This document shows positions 2,552 through 62,079 of a DNA stretch of 64,000 nt, piece by piece. This DNA is from a virus. Taxonomy: Duplodnaviria > Caudoviricetes. The notes beneath the pieces are model-generated. The model was given only the letters and a program-made list of their open reading frames with translations. It had not been told where the DNA came from and ran no database searches. The stretch lies in IMG/VR virus record IMGVR_UViG_3300028410_000746; one strand, written 5' to 3'. The position numbers and the translations under genes were made by a program. The first letter of the stretch is position 1; each line of letters opens with the position of its first letter.

Positions 2552-2647
2552 AGAATCTCAGAAAGGCCGCAAAAAAGATCACGCAAGAACGAAGCGACCC
2601 CCTCCCCGCAATGGGTGAGGGGGTCGGTGAGTCAGCTCAAGAGAGGC

Positions 2648-3064
2648 TCAGGAGAAGTGGGTTCCGAGGACCTCAGGGTTGATGCGGACCCCGTTCGAGC
2701 CCTTACCCTTCAGGCTCTCATCGGCTCGGCACTCGCGGCACCAGCTCTGGAGGTAGGTCTTGCCCCGAGCCTTGTAGAACCGGAGTCCGAAGGTCTCCTT
2801 GATCCCCTGGAGACCTTGAGCCTCCAGTCCACAGCAAGGGCAAGCGTGGACGATGTTCTCCCAGGGCTGGAGCCTTCCGACGAGACCCCTGTGGTCTCCG
2901 CGCGTCACCTCCGGCCAGCGGCTCACCAGGAGGTCGTAGAGGCTGCTCACCGCCTCCTCAGGGATCTCAGGGTTGGCGTGGGTCCAGCAGGCGATGAAAT
3001 CTTTGCGGAGGTTGAGGCTCTTGGCGTTCTTGAGGCTCTTGGCGGCGGCGTTCTGGACTTTCAT
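2648..3064 (-). CDS. Hypothetical protein, putative Zn finger (CPCC...CREC)
   Basis: ORF behind promoter module 2. Confidence 0.6.
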   Translation of the reverse strand: MKVQNAAAKSLKNAKSLNLRKDFIACWTHANPEIPEEAVSSLYDLLVSRWPEVTRGDHRGLVGRLQPWENIVHACPCCGLEAQGLQGIKETFGLRFYKARGKTYLQSWCRECRADESLKGKGSNGVRINPEVLGTHFS

Positions 3065-3155
3065 GACTTCCTCTCTTTCGTGTTGCGCCGTGATCCGGCG
3101 CCGTGTCTCTCTTGTCTCTCACCTCTCATGTACCACAAGGAGTGGGGAGCGTAAA
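3065..3155 (-). promoter_or_regulatory. Repeated promoter plus leader, module 2
   Basis: Near-identical to module 1. Confidence 0.7.
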
Positions 3156-3182
3156 AAGAATCTCAGAAAGGCCGCCGAAATC

Positions 3183-3770
3183 TCAAACGTGGGGGTCCTG
3201 CTTGATGACCGCGCCGCTGAAGCCCAGGCCCGAGTAACGGATAGCCTTGATGCTATCACCCTTGGTGGCCCATCCACGCTGGCCGTTGCCCCGCTTCTGA
3301 CGTCGGGTCCAGCACTGAGCGGGGATGTCCTCAAGAGCGACGCCCTCCTCCAGGGCCTGACGCGCCGATCGGAGGTCCGCAACCCAGATCTTCTTCTGCG
3401 AGTCTACCTTGGTGATGATCGCTCCGTAGGAGTCCCCCTGGACGTAGCGGGAAATCTCCCGACCCGCCTTCAGGATCGGGACGATCCTGATGTCCCTCAG
3501 CGCCAGGAAGTTGGAGCCGACCGCTTCTGCCAGCTCCTGGAAGCCAACGTGCTTCCAGGAGCTGCTCATCCAGTCGAAGAGGACCGAGAACTCCGCCGTT
3601 CGGTGGTCCATCCCCTCTTTCTCAGCCAGGATGCGGCCAAACTCTTCAACGGCTATCTTTTGAAGGTCTCGGCTCTCAAGTTTTACCAGGAGGCCTCTGA
3701 AGGCGAAGTTCTCCCGGTCACCGGACCGGACGTCTGCGAGGAAGCTGCGCATCTCACCGTAATTCGACAT
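3183..3770 (-). CDS. Hypothetical protein
   Basis: ORF behind promoter module 3. Confidence 0.6.
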   Translation of the reverse strand: MSNYGEMRSFLADVRSGDRENFAFRGLLVKLESRDLQKIAVEEFGRILAEKEGMDHRTAEFSVLFDWMSSSWKHVGFQELAEAVGSNFLALRDIRIVPILKAGREISRYVQGDSYGAIITKVDSQKKIWVADLRSARQALEEGVALEDIPAQCWTRRQKRGNGQRGWATKGDSIKAIRYSGLGFSGAVIKQDPHV

Positions 3771-19741: not shown

Positions 19742-19814
19742 TAGTCACGATGGGACTCGAACCCATACACGGGGATTTAGAATCCCCTGCTCTAACCCGT
19801 TGAGCTACACGACT
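19742..19814 (-). tRNA. tRNA-Sup(CUA), amber suppressor, copy 1
   Basis: Cloverleaf; anticodon arm GGGGA-TT CTA AA-TCCCC; A73; no encoded CCA. Confidence 0.9.
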
Positions 19815-42789: not shown

Positions 42790-42863
42790 TGCGCCGAGTG
42801 GGGCTCGAACCCACAACACGGGGATTTAGAATCCCCTGCTCTAACCCGTTGAGCTATCGGCGC
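42790..42863 (-). tRNA. tRNA-Sup(CUA), amber suppressor, copy 2
   Basis: Perfect 7-bp acceptor GCGCCGA/TCGGCGC; same D and anticodon arms as copy 1; A73. Confidence 0.92.
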
Positions 42864-43995: not shown

Positions 43996-44024
43996 CGGAA
44001 CATCCCCGCGTGTGCGGGGAAGGG
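43996..44024 (-). CRISPR. Solitary type I-E repeat with a full leader
   Basis: CCCTTCCCCGCACACGCGGGGATGTTCCG; no neighbouring repeat. Confidence 0.85.
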
Positions 44025-44165
44025 TCTGTGCCAAGAAGTCACATGAGCGGAATCACGTAAGTACTCAGTTTTCAAAGACTTCTCAGGTTCAGCGCCGTTC
44101 GGTGTCACCCTTGGGCGACCCTCTTGACGTCCGTATGGTAACCCTGAGGAGGGAAACCTGTCAAC
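44025..44165 (-). promoter_or_regulatory. CRISPR leader with promoter (leader copy 3)
   Basis: TTGACA-N18-TACCAT; homologous to the other two leaders. Confidence 0.8.
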
Positions 44166-44279
44166 ATGAGCAAGCTTCGCTTCCGCCAATTGCTTCAAAT
44201 GCGCATCCCTCAACCCGAACCTCCTGTCACAGTGTGAGTCCGAAGAGAGAGGATACCTCGAAGTCACACACCTGTCAAG

Positions 44280-44350
44280 CTCTGGGACCGGGACTTGAAC
44301 CCGGAAAGATTGGTTAACAGCCAATTATGATACCATTTCATCATCCCAGA
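44280..44350 (-). tRNA. tRNA-Asn(GUU)
   Basis: Cloverleaf, G73. Confidence 0.9.
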
Positions 44351-44377
44351 AGACGATCACGTTACCGCGACCGACAG

Positions 44378-44462
44378 GGTGTCGGGAAGGAGTCGAACCT
44401 TCATACCTCCGAAGAGGAACTGGGCCACACGGAGGCGAGCCTGCCAATGCTCAACCGGACGC
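44378..44462 (-). ncRNA. Tyr-like tRNA paralog C (loop GT GTG GC); its own acceptor and anticodon stems do not pair
   Basis: D arm, long variable arm and T arm intact; halves complement paralog B. Confidence 0.6.
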
Positions 44463-44467
44463 CCAAA

Positions 44468-44551
44468 TGCGCCGGGTAGGAGTCGAACCTACAGGTCTCC
44501 GAAGAGAACCCTCGCTACAACCAGCCGAGCTTACCAATGCTCAACCGACAC
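44468..44551 (-). ncRNA. Tyr-like tRNA paralog B (loop TT GTA GC); its own anticodon stem does not pair
   Basis: D arm, long variable arm and T arm intact; halves complement paralog C. Confidence 0.65.
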
Positions 44552-44555
44552 GCAA

Positions 44556-44636
44556 TGCGTTGGGCAGGACTCGAACCTGCACGCCCGAAGGACCGGGGCT
44601 ACAACCCGGCGAGCCAGCCAATTGCTCAACCAACGC
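44556..44636 (-). tRNA. tRNA-Tyr(GUA)
   Basis: Complete type II cloverleaf, A73. Confidence 0.9.
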
Positions 44637-44662
44637 AGATCACGAGCCTCACACGCTCGCGA

Positions 44663-44749
44663 CAATGACCTCTCACGGAATCGAACCGTGACCCGCAGGG
44701 GGAGACACCCCCACGTAGGTGAGGAAAAGTCTGCGACAAGAAGTCATTG
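44663..44749 (-). ncRNA. tRNA-like element with an 11-bp acceptor-like stem and T arm, no D arm
   Basis: CAATGACTTCT/AGAGGTCATTG; CACGG-TTCGATT-CCGTG. Confidence 0.45.
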
Positions 44750-44792
44750 CACGTGTGTAATCGAGAGACGTAGTGCTCTCATTCCCAAAAGA

Positions 44793-45362
44793 TTACTCCT
44801 CTCCGTCGTCCATATACACATCATCAGGCCCGCGAGCATTCAACAGGAGCAACTGAGCACCCAGGACGTCCAGCGCGCCGTAGAGCGACGACGCGGCGCC
44901 GTGAGCGTCCTCCAGACATGCTTGGTAGCACGGCTCACCATCTCGCATCTCGACAGACAACAAAACGTCCTCTCTCGCCGTACGTAGTACCGAAGGGGGG
45001 AGCACCGTCGAGGAGGGGCCCTTGAAGCCCATGAGCAGGACCCCAGCGCTCTTTGCGTGGCGCTTGAAGCCGTTGTAGCGCTGAATCAGTTCCCGATGCG
45101 AGGATTCGCGTTCAGGGTACTCGACCGCGTGGGTACGAGTAGGGCCGACGTAGCTGAAGCGAGGGCCTTCATAGCCGTACTCCGGCTTGTCCACGTGCTC
45201 CAGGAACATCTCAACAGGACGTGCCCACAACTCCCCAGAACGATCAGGCCGATGGTACACGGCTACAGGAGAGTCGCCTTCCGAATGCCTAGCGACCCCT
45301 ACCAGAAAGTAGAGGTCACCCTTGAAGTGGCGGTAGTAACCGGGCACCGGTTCAGTAGTCAT
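44793..45362 (-). CDS. DUF1653 domain protein
   Basis: GYYRHFKGDLY..VARHSE..VYH..LWARPVEMFLE..PRF. Confidence 0.85.
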   Translation of the reverse strand: MTTEPVPGYYRHFKGDLYFLVGVARHSEGDSPVAVYHRPDRSGELWARPVEMFLEHVDKPEYGYEGPRFSYVGPTRTHAVEYPERESSHRELIQRYNGFKRHAKSAGVLLMGFKGPSSTVLPPSVLRTAREDVLLSVEMRDGEPCYQACLEDAHGAASSLYGALDVLGAQLLLLNARGPDDVYMDDGEE

Positions 45363-58322: not shown

Positions 58323-58633
58323 TGCGCAAACCATGGGTGTGCCGTGACTCCCCGACCGCCGCAGTCGTCACATGGAGGATGAGAATAGAGAACCCCCTCG
58401 CCGCCACACGCGCCACACTCAAGGTCGTAGAGGACCCCTTGGTAGTCACACCTCGCGCAGCCGTCCGGATCTTCCCCGTCTCCTTCCCCTCCGCAGGCCG
58501 GACACGGAATCTCTTCCAGGAAGCCATCCCCCCGACAGACCTCGCACTCGGTCTCCAGGAGGAGATCCTTTCGGACCCCCTCCATCATACAGACCTCGCA
58601 CTCGACGAGCATTGTGGGAGGCATGGGACTCAT
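58319..58633 (-). CDS. DnaJ-type CxxCxGxG Zn-finger protein
   Basis: Multiple CxxCxGxG repeats. Confidence 0.7.
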   Translation of the reverse strand: MSPMPPTMLVECEVCMMEGVRKDLLLETECEVCRGDGFLEEIPCPACGGEGDGEDPDGCARCDYQGVLYDLECGACGGEGVLYSHPPCDDCGGRGVTAHPWFAQ

Positions 58634-61600
58634 ACAGACGGCTCCTGGACGAAGGGCTCGGTCACCGGGAGAGCCTTGGTCCAGTCACGAAGAACGTCTC
58701 GGAACACCAGCGGCGGAATCTGCTCCACGCGGTCCACCGGGTAGAACGTCATTTCGCTGAGCACCAGGGCGTCCACGTCACGCAGGTCCTTGGTACACTG
58801 CGAGGGCATGATGACCTCACGGATGCCCGCGCGATGCGCGGCGATGACCTTCTCCTTGATGCCGCCGACCGGGAGCACCTGACCCGTGAGCGTAATCTCA
58901 CCGGTCATGGCCACCTCTCGGCGCAGCTTGAGCCCCGCGAAGCGAGAGAGCAAGGCGCTGAACATCGTGATGCCTGCGGAGGGACCATCCTTGGGGATGG
59001 CGCCAGCCGGCACGTGGATGTGAAGGTCGTGCGACTTGATCATGTTGGTGTCTACTCCATACAGATCGCCATGCGCACGCAGGTAGCTCAGGGCAGCCCG
59101 GACAGACTCCTTCATGACGTCTCCGAGCTGGCCCGTCAGCGTCACCTCACCCTTACCCCCTTTCATCGCCTGCACCTCAATGAAGAGGATGTCTCCACCT
59201 ACCGCCGTCCAGGCCAAGCCCGTTGCCACGCCCTCCTGATCCTCACGCTGCGACACCTCCGAGATGTACCGAACGGGACCCAGCGCCTTCTCGACCCGCC
59301 CCATGTCCAGGGGGAACACCGCACCGAGACGCTCAGCCTCCGGAAGCTTGACGACATCCACAGCGATAGAGCGGCACAGGTCTCCCAGCCTACGGTTCAG
59401 GCTACGGACGCCCGCCTCACGGGTGTACTTGTCCACCACGTGGTGGACCACCCCATCCGCGACCTCGATCTGGTCGGGCCCCAGACCGTGGGCGGCTACC
59501 TGCTTGGGGAAGAGATAGCGAGTCGCGATCTCATTCTTCTCGAACATCGTGTAGCTGGGGACCTCCAGGATCTCCATACGGTCACGCAGCGGAGCCGAGA
59601 TCGTATCCAACCGGTTGGCCGTGGCGATGAAGAGGACCTTGGACAGGTCAAGGTCTATCTCCAGGTAGTGGTCGTTGAACGTCGAGTTCTGAGCCGGATC
59701 AAGAACCTCCAGGAACGCGGCGGCGGGGTCGCCTCGGAAGTCCGAGCCCACCTTGTCGATCTCGTCCAGGAGGATGACCGGGTTCATCGTGCCGGCCTTC
59801 TGAAGCGCTCGAACGATGCGGCCCGGCATGGCGCCCACATAGGTACGACGGTGACCACGGATCTCGGACTCGTCGTGCATACCTCCAAGGGAGATGCGCG
59901 CGAACTTGCGGCCCATCGTCCGGGCAATGGACTTGGCGATGGACGTGTTATGCGTCACAATCACGTCATCAGTGATGTAAAGAGAATCAGGAGCAGAGAC
60001 CTTGATGCACTGAGTCTCCTTGACACCTACCGCTACGATATCAGAGATGAACCTCTTGGGAGCGTACTTACTCTTGGAGACCCACCGCTGAGCTTTGGCG
60101 TCACACCAGAAGGGACACTGACCCGCCGACATTGAGACCGTCACGTTGTACGCCAGACGACCCGAACGCCTCTCCCCATCAACCGTATATGACGGCTTTT
60201 TCATCGTCACCCGTGTCACCCCCCCAAGCGACCGGACCAACCACTGCACGTCATCACACAATCGCGTCGACGTCGTACAAAAAGAAACCCTACAACCCGT
60301 CGCGTCTACAGTACCGCCAGTGTCCATCAAGCCCTGCAAAAGAGCGAGCCTCTGCTCTACCGAGCCGTAAAGGTACACATAAGGTACATGCTTTTCGTAC
60401 GAGTAGAGCCCCGTAAGTTCCAGAGCATCCAGCTCCACCTGCAACGCGTCCCGTACAGACCCCTTTCGCCCTGCGGTCAAACGATAGTCACAGGTCTCCG
60501 ACGCTTGCTTGCGCATCCGAACCTCCCCCGGCAAGGCGGCAGCTACGCGTGCGCAAATATCACCCTCTGGGTTTGAAAAACCAACGGAAGCTCCCGTAAG
60601 GCCTCCATCTCCCAAGAGCGCCCCCAAGAGGTACGGGTCAAGGGGTACGGACTTTTCCGCAAACTCCAAGGGCTGGGTCAGAGGGATAGAATGGTTGCGG
60701 CGAGCGTCCGAGCCGTACCGAAGCGTCTCTCGGATTTGCTCCAGAGACTTCACCGACCCCTCACGGGAAGCCTTCCGATCGAGGTCGGTATGCGTGTACC
60801 ACAAGTGCTCGTCGCAACACTCTGTTGATGAGCCGTCTTGAAACTCCACACGATACACCGGCCGCGTGCCTTGAGGGAACGCGCCCTCCACGTGATGAAC
60901 GCCCCCGTCCGCACCCATGACCGCATCACCTACCGCAAGCGTACCCATCGCAACCCAACCCTTCGGGGTCAACACCCGCGCATCCAAAGGCTGCGCCTTG
61001 CCCACACCGGGAGGGCCCACGAAGCACAGGATCGGGCCGTTCATGTCCTGCTTGAGCGCCTGAACAGCCAGATGCTCGACCACCCTTCGCTTCACCTTCT
61101 CCAGGCCGTAGTGGTCCGCGTCGAGCACATCCTCCGCGCGGACGACATCCAGGTTGTCCTCGCTCTCGACGCCCCACGGCACATCGAGCATCTGCTGGAT
61201 GTAGTTGAGCGTCACCGAATACTCGGAGCTGGCCGGCTGCATCGCGTCGAGTCGACGATGCTGCTTCAGGACCGCAGCCTCCACCTCCTCAGGCATGTCT
61301 GCCTCCTGAATACGCTCAAGCAGCTCCTCCGTCTCGGAGATGTCCTCACCGAGCTGGTCCTTGATGACCTTGAGCTGCTGGCGAAGGATGTACTCACGCT
61401 GAATAGACTTGCTGCGCTCCTGGAGCGACTGGTTGATCTCACCCGCCAGCTCCTGGCGCGCGATACGCTCCCCCAGGATGCGCAGACACCGAGACGCGCG
61501 CTCCGTGATGTTCGGCTCCAGGTAGAGAGCCAACAGGTCCTCATCCTCGAAGCGGGGCGCGAGCATGTCTGTAAGGTCTGAGAGGGAGCCCACAGCACGC

Positions 61601-62079
61601 ACGCGCTCGAACTCCTGCTCGGGAGCGTCCGGATCGTCTCCCAGGACCTGAAGCGTCTTCTCCTGAAGCGCCTCGAACAGCGCTTCATTGTACTCCGCCT
61701 CCTTGTCGAACTCCGGTCCAATGACCTCGAAGTGACCCATCAACGGCGCGGAGGCATCCTCCGGAATCTCAAGATCCAGGAGCCTCAGCCTCACCTCCCC
61801 GGAAGAAATGACCGTATAGTCGTTCGCGTTCGGGTTCGGGATGATCTTGATGCAGGACACCAGGGTCGCGATCTCGTGGACCTCATCCATCGAGGACAGC
61901 GTGAGCACGTCCGGAGACTTCTGAAGCACGACCGCGATCTTGAAAGGCGCCGGCGAGTCTGCACCCTCAATGACCGCCAGGGAGCGTGCTCGACCGACCC
62001 GAACAGGGATCATCTGTAGCGGGAAAAGAGGGTTCTCGCGCATGGCGATCACGGGAAGGTACAGGGTGTCAGCGCTCAT
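58630..62079 (-). CDS. lon: ATP-dependent Lon protease containing an intein
   Basis: LON N-domain, GPPGVGK|T, LLDEIDK, DGPSAG catalytic Ser, IGGIKEK-type VGGIKEK. Confidence 0.97.
59947..60996 (-). mobile_element. Class-3 intein (350 aa) with a LAGLIDADG domain in the Lon P-loop
   Basis: Starts AQPLD, ends VTHN before Thr+1; WCT signature (HLW, TQC, VTHN). Confidence 0.92.

Follow-up and report, generated by a model that had tools for sequence, protein, structure and literature searches.

A tRNA gene run with two uncalled members

We examined a 64,000-nucleotide stretch of phage DNA (IMG/VR record IMGVR_UViG_3300028410_000746; Duplodnaviria, Caudoviricetes), hereafter the window, and describe within it two adjacent tRNA-like genes, designated B and C, whose stem strands are complementary to one another in a reciprocal, crosswise fashion. 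The window derives from a lake-water metagenome and belongs to a large phage genome with a GC content of 0.60 and nearly all orphan genes; the minus strand carries almost all of the genes in the window as well as its 15 called tRNAs. Genes B and C lie in a run that reads, in order along the minus strand, a tRNA-like RNA (44749-44666), gene A (44637-44555), gene B (44551-44468), gene C (44463-44378), a hairpin, and a tRNA-Asn(GTT) (44350-44279) at the downstream end of the run. Gene A, situated 4 nt upstream of B, is an intact paralogue, a tRNA-Tyr(GTA) that was found by ARAGORN and by Rfam (50.9 bits); the tRNA-Asn was likewise found by both. Genes A, B, and C are tandem paralogues spaced at 88-90 nt, B and C being separated by a spacer of 4 nt and sharing 77% identity over 75 nt, with a longest common exact repeat of 13 nt.

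ARAGORN made no call on B, on C, or on the 174-nt unit that they form together (44378-44551), and neither gene is present in the Rfam list at the gathering threshold. Gene B matched the tRNA family RF00005 with 29.6 bits only when a 451-nt region was searched, and the match of gene C was to tRNA-Sec, with 26.6 bits against a threshold of 47. Each gene nonetheless has an intact D arm bearing GG, a long variable arm capped by UUCG, and a T arm bearing GTTCGANTC, so that all six local hairpins of the pair are intact. When the halves of the two genes were exchanged in silico (B5'+C3' and C5'+B3') at the loop, ARAGORN called a tRNA-Tyr(gta) and a type-II tRNA(gtg).

The identity marks of the two genes as encoded were compared with the bacterial His and Tyr identity sets (PMC9976931). 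Gene B carries the Tyr set (A73, G34, U35), and gene C carries the full His set (G-1, C73, and G34 U35 G36) on a tyrosine-type body, the same G-1/C73/GUG marks being borne by the phage's normal tRNA-His (37186-37112).

Crosswise pairing and predicted folding

An initial annotation of the sequence had proposed that the two genes exchange stems, one tRNA being nested in circularly permuted form within the anticodon loop of the other, and all of the pairings that it listed were confirmed on the minus strand. The 5' acceptor strand of B, GTGTCGG (44545-44551), pairs with the 3' strand of C, CCGACAC (44379-44385), in seven of seven Watson-Crick pairs (-10.5 kcal/mol), with a discriminator C following at 44378, and the strand GCTGG of B (44521-44525) pairs with CCAGT of C (44419-44423) in four Watson-Crick pairs and one G-U pair; these are the acceptor and the anticodon stem of the outer tRNA. 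Reciprocally, GCGTCCGG of C (44462-44455) pairs with CCGGCGC of B (44475-44469) in seven pairs with one bulge, although comparison with a relative (L146, below) makes the bulged T of the annotation read better as an inserted C, and this inner acceptor takes the form of a closed hairpin, CCGGCGC - A TTTG G - GCGTC(C)GG (44455-44475; -10.3 kcal/mol). The inner anticodon stem joins GAGGG of B (44509-44513) to CCTCC of C (44431-44435), either as five positions with three Watson-Crick pairs, one G-U pair, and one C x A mismatch or, shifted by one, as four Watson-Crick pairs. Between these stems lie two loop strands, TTGTAGC in B (44514-44520; U33 G34 U35 A36), which recurs unchanged in the adjacent tRNA-Tyr and in its family, and GTGTGGC in C (44424-44430; U33 G34 U35 G36), and in the nested fold they face one another as a 7 x 7 internal loop, as the annotation had supposed when it placed the joint of the two bodies at two unpaired loop strands.

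The own anticodon stems of the two genes are absent, as had also been claimed, with two of five pairs in B and two of five in C (duplex energies of -0.1 and +0.9 kcal/mol). As a control, we scored 304 ordered pairings of a 5' strand with a 3' strand among the 15 tRNAs of the window plus B and C. The two cross pairings ranked at the top, B5' x C3' with 12 of 12 positions (seven Watson-Crick pairs in the acceptor; four Watson-Crick pairs and one G-U pair in the anticodon stem) and C5' x B3' with 11 of 12, and the next best control reached 10. By hand arithmetic, the chance of reciprocal complementarity between two decayed stems is ~5e-4.

To say that neither gene can fold alone would be too strong where the acceptor stems are concerned. 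The own acceptor of B also pairs (five Watson-Crick pairs and two G-U pairs; -9.5 kcal/mol), and that of C forms seven of eight pairs, including G-1:C73, with one C x A mismatch and one bulge (-6.1 kcal/mol), the swapped acceptors being better than the own acceptors by ~5 kcal/mol. Because the own acceptor of B, and nearly that of C, can form, the hard acceptor evidence for the swap is the pair 2:71. The 5' anticodon-stem strand of C, moreover, has a rival to its partner in B, namely a perfect 7-bp helix with the variable arm of the same gene (-11.4 kcal/mol).

Immediately after CCGACAC of gene C, the minus strand reads CC-TGTCGGT (within 44351-44385), a near copy of the 5' acceptor strand of B, which could close the C acceptor as a 6-bp hairpin (-8.5 kcal/mol); the fold of the whole operon instead places this TGTCGGT copy in a GUAA-capped hairpin ahead of tRNA-Asn. 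A mobile-element target-site duplication marked by the TGTCGGT flanks was considered and rejected, the first copy being the acceptor strand and the second being absorbed in the GUAA hairpin.

The minimum free energy (MFE) fold of the 174-nt unit (-72.8 kcal/mol) contains both the outer (B5'/C3') and the inner (B3'/C5') acceptor helices, and both also appear in the MFE and centroid structures of the 472-nt operon, in which A and tRNA-Asn fold separately; folded alone, B and C reach -33.2 and -28.6 kcal/mol. In the unconstrained ensemble the pairing probability is 0.88 for the inner acceptor, 0.52 for the outer acceptor, and 0.00 for the own acceptors, with a value of about 0 for the outer anticodon stem. 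Unconstrained folding of the unit bears out the swapped acceptors of the initial annotation but not its swapped anticodon stems, which are missing from this ensemble. Nearest-neighbour folding is a poor judge of cloverleaves (the genuine tRNA-Tyr of gene A was misfolded too), and we also folded the unit with its six D, variable, and T hairpins enforced, a constraint that serves as a stand-in for the tertiary contacts of a tRNA. Under it, the outer acceptor rose to ~1.0 and the inner to ~0.95, the own acceptors stayed at 0.00, and the outer and inner anticodon stems reached 0.5-0.6 and ~0.4, the latter over two registers. Explicit cloverleaf energies were -60.1 kcal/mol for the nested double form against -24.7 kcal/mol for B alone without an anticodon stem. 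The proposed outer tRNA (B5'+C3') around a circularly permuted inner tRNA is thus the best tRNA-like fold and dominates when the six hairpins are enforced, whereas the models cannot be told apart by free-energy folding on its own. Support for the nested reading comes from its standing as the best predicted tRNA-like fold and from the comparison with an intact relative given below.

Ancestry of the halves, relatives, and surroundings

The motif formed by the variable and T arms of both 3' halves was found at 23 viral or metagenomic loci, nearly all of them ordinary tRNA-Tyr(GTA) genes, and the patterns of the D arm (UUGAGC...) and loop (UUGUAGC) led to ordinary tRNA-Tyr genes on three further contigs (L146, L147, and L149). 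By sequence, both halves of B and of C belong to a phage-type tRNA-Tyr family. The closest relative is the tRNA-Tyr of L146, a 4.1-kb contig with 12 tRNA genes that was binned with an Actinomycetota MAG (metagenome-assembled genome), which is 81% identical to A and 78% identical to B. An HNH endonuclease open reading frame (ORF; 2779-3321) stands directly upstream of this tRNA-Tyr (region 2626-3321), and the contig probably represents part of a phage that carries a homing endonuclease within its tRNA array.

The acceptor of the L146 tRNA-Tyr is GCGTCGG/CCGGCGC with A73. The 3' acceptor strand of B is identical to that of this relative, and the 5' strand of C equals its counterpart plus one inserted C; overall, C5' (25 of 33 positions) and B3' (31 of 47) are also the halves closer to L146, as compared with 23 of 32 for B5' and 27 of 47 for C3'. 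Because C5' and B3' together reproduce the L146 acceptor, they were once one ordinary gene, a conservative paralogue which we call Y, and B5' and C3' make up a second, more diverged paralogue, X, distinguished by U2-A71 and U4-A69. If the whole loop moves with the 3' half, Y has A73 and the family loop UUGUAGC, and X, on the same assumption, has C73 and the loop GUGUGGC. In both genes the most fitting site for the break is between positions 31 and 32, and the order X(1-31), Y(32-76), 5-nt linker, Y(1-31), X(32-76) is a permuted Y inside X, that is, a reciprocal exchange of 3' halves. Gene B, on the minus strand, accordingly consists of the 5' half of X (acceptor 5' strand, D arm, and anticodon-stem strand) and the 3' half of Y (TTGTAGC, GAGGG, variable arm, T arm, CCGGCGC, and A73), and gene C, on the same strand, of G-1 and Y's 5' half (the strand GCGTC[C]GG, the D arm, and CCTCC), followed by the 3' half of X (GTGTGGC, CCAGT, variable arm, T arm, CCGACAC, and C73). 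The half-swap model does not explain why C should bear a His identity set on a Tyr-type body.

Such an order could possibly have arisen in one step, either because a break or replication stall at the X anticodon hairpin underwent misregister repair with a Y-Y tandem as template or because a circle comprising one Y unit integrated there. The initial annotation had offered, among other possibilities, the trace of a circular tRNA integrating at the loop, and the idea of a DNA event at that site gains support from the intact L146 relative, whose acceptor is that of C5'+B3'.

Searches for relatives of the locus itself gave little. A blastn search of 44250-44700 against 50,697 phage records matched only genes A and Asn; exact and degenerate B/C patterns in IMG/VR yielded just one unrelated tRNA-Tyr and one chance match; and the family pattern, searched in GTDB genomes and IMG/VR, returned normal tRNA-Tyr genes only. 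The D-arm-plus-loop pattern had no match in the JGI metagenomes. No relatives of the two upstream neighbouring proteins were found in IMG/VR, the nearer of them matched only itself in a set of 5.8 billion proteins, and by PHROGs the neighbouring genes are orphans. At the end of a viral contig (L030, 8180-8408), two tandem tRNA-like RNAs that ARAGORN did not call have their own acceptor stems and T arms, and their central parts are complementary over ~15 nt (GCCTCTAGGTTTTGC vs GCAAAACCTAGGAGGC); they may be another type of interlocking pair.

Elsewhere in the window, a Lon protease gene (58630-62079, minus strand; 1149 aa) has a LAGLIDADG-type match at residues 575-627, ahead of an AAA match at residues 712-837, which suggests an intein. 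Two well-formed tRNAs with CUA anticodons (minus strand; 19742-19814 and 42790-42863; 65.7 and 68.1 bits) are amber readers that ARAGORN labels Pyl, and a PTH2 peptidyl-tRNA hydrolase domain is also present. At 44000-44085, the contigs of a second assembly (Logan) fragment and their depth climbs to ~200, and the sequence there is therefore repeated in the sample.

A proposed two-headed RNA, its rivals, and known systems

We tentatively favour the reading that B and C are kept as a non-decoding, two-headed tRNA mimic or decoy, comparable to two YrlA-like RNAs that this phage carries (described below), a proposal that we regard as quite possible without holding it firmly. The run would be transcribed as one precursor together with the tRNA-Tyr and the tRNA-Asn, and the 174-nt unit would fold as a single RNA in which an outer tRNA body, closed by the 5' end of B and the 3' end of C, is joined stem to stem with an inner permuted body, which has a short loop capping its 7-bp acceptor, via the 7 x 7 internal loop that shows two U-G-U anticodon strands. 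By analogy with the YrlA RNA of Mycobacterium smegmatis, RNase P may cut at the 5' end of B and inside the loop of the inner acceptor, and CCA may then be added, giving a two-piece B/C heterodimer held by ~24 intermolecular pairs. Because it has no closed anticodon loop, this two-headed RNA could not decode.

A possible target of the two-headed RNA would be an enzyme that recognises either anticodon loops of the GUN type or the body of a tRNA, for example a tRNA-directed defence nuclease, and this we offer as speculation. Among the non-canonical tRNA-like RNAs described here, all those with a loop show the triplet U-G-U in it, namely B, C, a YrlA-like RNA with an Asn loop (described below), and the hairpin GGGGG-UGUCU-CCCCC of the RNA at 44749-44666. 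U33-G34-U35 is read by nucleases of the colicin E5 type and by tRNA-guanine transglycosylase. A defence nuclease that phage tRNA-Tyr counters has tRNA-Tyr as its target (PMC11555353). From the U-G-U loops, these recognition habits, and the role of tRNA-Tyr as a nuclease target, a decoy is plausible, though its assignment is speculative. The RNA that opens the run (44666-44749, minus strand) also has an 11-bp closing helix and a T arm, CACGG-UUCGAUU-CCGUG; if its hairpin is read as a 4-bp stem with a 7-nt loop, it shows GUC, and the run would then display GUC, GUA, GUA, GUG, and GUU, which comprise the four queuosine-family anticodons.

Several observations weigh against a retained RNA of this form. 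Over the swapped anticodon stems, the unconstrained ensemble favours the 7-bp helix inside C (pairing probability 0.99) and a cross pairing of D arms; the 174-nt fold has a z-score of just -1.96; and the inserted C places a bulge in the inner acceptor that looks like relaxed constraint. No second example of the arrangement was found: among the other tandem T-arm pairs in IMG/VR, 126 in number, a reciprocal swap was not seen, and the six pairs among them in which both members were uncalled had their own acceptors formed or were unrelated oddities. The locus is thus a single instance, for which the searches above returned no relatives. No RNA sequencing run containing the locus was found, the YrlA model (RF02553) had no match at the B/C junction (44440-44500), and no Ro60/TROVE protein, RNA ligase, or RtcB was found among the 89 minus-strand ORFs of the window.

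Some of these same observations are what a recombination scar would leave, and we consider it only slightly less probable that the locus is one of recent date, in which Y(32-76)-spacer-Y(1-31) was inserted into X by misregister repair on a Y-Y tandem or by integration of a Y circle, so that B and C are dead pseudo-tRNAs with inherited complementarity. The agreement of C5'+B3' with the acceptor of the intact relative, and the greater closeness of these halves to it, show that ordinary X and Y came first; the inserted C in the Y acceptor resembles early decay; with an intact tRNA-Tyr (A) and an intact tRNA-His (37186-37112) present, decoding does not need X and Y; no second example was found; and the tandem genes at 88-90-nt spacing are a substrate for misaligned repair, to which may be added, circumstantially, the HNH endonuclease gene just upstream of the homologous L146 tRNA-Tyr and the LAGLIDADG match in this genome's Lon gene. 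A scar, however, requires a Y-Y donor that is no longer present and must place two junctions at the same position of a 7-nt loop despite the 13-nt identical blocks of the D and T arms that were available for ordinary exchange. It also leaves to chance the complete His identity set of C (~1 in 4 from a random junction), and neither the six hairpins nor the two cross stems have been lost, in a kind of genome that usually sheds useless DNA fast. That the joint is instead an artefact, two normal tRNA genes having been wrongly joined in assembly or sequencing, is hardly credible, even though the sequence occurs in one run only, probably that of the source sample. The Logan assembly of the same run gives a single 9496-nt contig at depth 16 with 0 differences over 44034-45100 and with no alternative joint or loose ends across B/C, which excludes an assembly chimera at the level of a second assembler. 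Logan contigs are built with 31-mers, so the longest repeat shared by B and C (13 nt) is far too short for a repeat-induced mis-join to have been possible.

Two further explanations would give the genes a working role of another kind. It is unlikely that B and C act separately with their own acceptors, one Tyr-like and the other His-like, as chargeable but non-decoding RNAs whose anticodon-arm strands pair in trans or not at all. Gene B does have a normal own acceptor (five Watson-Crick and two G-U pairs) together with A73 and GUA, and C has G-1:C73, GUG, and seven of eight acceptor pairs, sharing G-1/C73 with the phage's normal tRNA-His; HisRS is moreover able to charge mini-helices bearing G-1:C73 (PMC9976931). 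The own acceptors nevertheless had a probability of 0.00 in every computed ensemble, that of C has a mismatch and a bulge, and covariation at 2:71 favours the swapped pairing. We consider it very unlikely that the unit is a precursor of two real tRNAs, in which a host anticodon nuclease or an enzyme of the phage cuts both loop strands and an RNA ligase rejoins the ends crosswise, giving an outer tRNA and, once RNase P has acted and the linker has been trimmed at the 3' side, an inner one. The products made in silico are both detectable tRNAs, an exchange 5' of position 36 yields matched marks (GUA/A73 and GUG/C73), and in the nested fold cleavage would turn each half into a nicked tRNA that its acceptor and anticodon stems keep together. 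A nicked, stem-held tRNA is the kind of substrate that tRNA-repair ligases such as phage T4 Rnl1/Pnkp seal. To set against this, no bulge-helix-bulge is possible, splicing endonuclease is lacking in bacteria to our knowledge, Rfam gives no intron or ribozyme, no RNA ligase, RtcB, or polynucleotide kinase was found among the 89 ORFs of the window, and the GUG product would lack G-1 and have a long variable arm. Its more specific version, a latent two-in-one precursor in which a host nuclease directed at GUN loops cuts the UGU strands and a ligase seals them crosswise into two working tRNAs (GUA/A73 and GUG/C73), is a slightly slimmer prospect; if true, it would mean that phages have their own form of split or permuted tRNA maturation, triggered by the very defence against which it works.

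Other candidates were set aside. Rfam gave no match to any intron or ribozyme at the locus at E up to 10, which disposes of a group I intron or small ribozyme, and an insert of ~90 nt made of tRNA arms is in any case too short for a group I core. A bulge-helix-bulge splice site was ruled out by hand pairing, since UUGUAGC and GUGUGGC form no 4-bp central helix in either register. An inversion of the central segment was rejected because the T and variable arms of B3' are genuine and do not represent a complemented D arm. A plus-strand protein gene (ORF 44379-44987) was rejected because it merely reads through the tRNA repeats, and site-specific excision of an 88-bp circle because such a circle would be too small.

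The known systems beside which the proposed two-headed mimic would stand comprise permuted and split tRNA genes in algae and archaea, matured by dedicated splicing, and the permuted mimics of the YrlA type in bacteria and phages. Literature searches on permuted or split tRNAs and phages turned up no complete tRNA body that surrounds a permuted one and derives from a recognisable pair of tRNA-Tyr genes. Provided that the RNA is stable and adopts the predicted fold, it would represent a new architecture of tRNA mimicry and a snapshot of how a single DNA event may turn tandem tRNA genes into YrlA-like mimics, and its two UGU loops and tRNA-Tyr ancestry would link it to phage answers to tRNA-cutting defences. 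Should the locus be no more than a scar, it remains a clean case of a reciprocal half-swap at the anticodon loop and illustrates why tRNA finders overlook genes in phage tRNA arrays.

The nearest likeness is to YrlA (RF02553), in which the order of the inner module recurs: the 3' strand of the anticodon stem, variable region, T arm, an acceptor closed by a short loop, 2 nt, D arm, and the 5' strand of the anticodon stem. The 7-bp acceptor of M. smegmatis YrlA has the same length as that of the inner module, a length that makes it a substrate for RNase P and CCA addition; this RNA is cleaved by RNase P and gains CCA in vivo and persists as two pieces (Chen et al. 2014; PMC4201824). Unlike YrlA, the B/C unit has, in place of the Ro60-binding stem, another complete tRNA body whose 5' and 3' ends are free, a long variable arm in its module, and a visible ancestry in tRNA-Tyr genes. 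The only RF02553 match near the genes was one of 16.3 bits at the A/B junction, and no DUF7873 was found among the 89 ORFs of the window. Farther away on the minus strand there are two tandem weak RF02553 matches (22731-22621, 33.2 bits; 22573-22476, 27.1 bits; gathering score 69), the second of which has a full anticodon arm whose loop, CUGUUAA, is that of the tRNA-Asn (44350-44279).

Circularly permuted tRNA genes were reportedly described in 2007 by Soma et al. in Cyanidioschyzon merolae and green algae. In genes of this type the 3' half lies upstream of the 5' half across a short linker and the break falls in or beside the anticodon loop, features shared by the inner tRNA only. They mature by way of a bulge-helix-bulge motif, a splicing endonuclease of eukaryotic or archaeal kind, and a circular intermediate. 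The present locus differs in that no bulge-helix-bulge is possible and in that the permuted gene lies inside another tRNA gene, and we know of no tRNA splicing endonuclease in bacteria. In split tRNAs of the Nanoarchaeum type, the halves occupy separate loci and carry extra complementary leader and trailer sequences; the halves of B and C are adjacent and have no such extension. A bacterial precedent for a tRNA-like acceptor made from two RNA chains in permuted order is the two-piece tmRNA from permuted genes, reportedly described by Keiler, Shapiro, and Williams in 2000 for alpha-proteobacteria and cyanobacteria, from which B and C differ by having no mRNA-like part, G3-U70 pair, or tag reading frame, and no tmRNA call by ARAGORN. 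The ordinary phage tRNA-Tyr(GUA) genes, finally, which include gene A and those of L146, L149, and L013, are marked by a UUGAGC D arm, a UUGUAGC loop, and a UUCG-capped variable arm, and they are contiguous and self-folding, as B and C are not.

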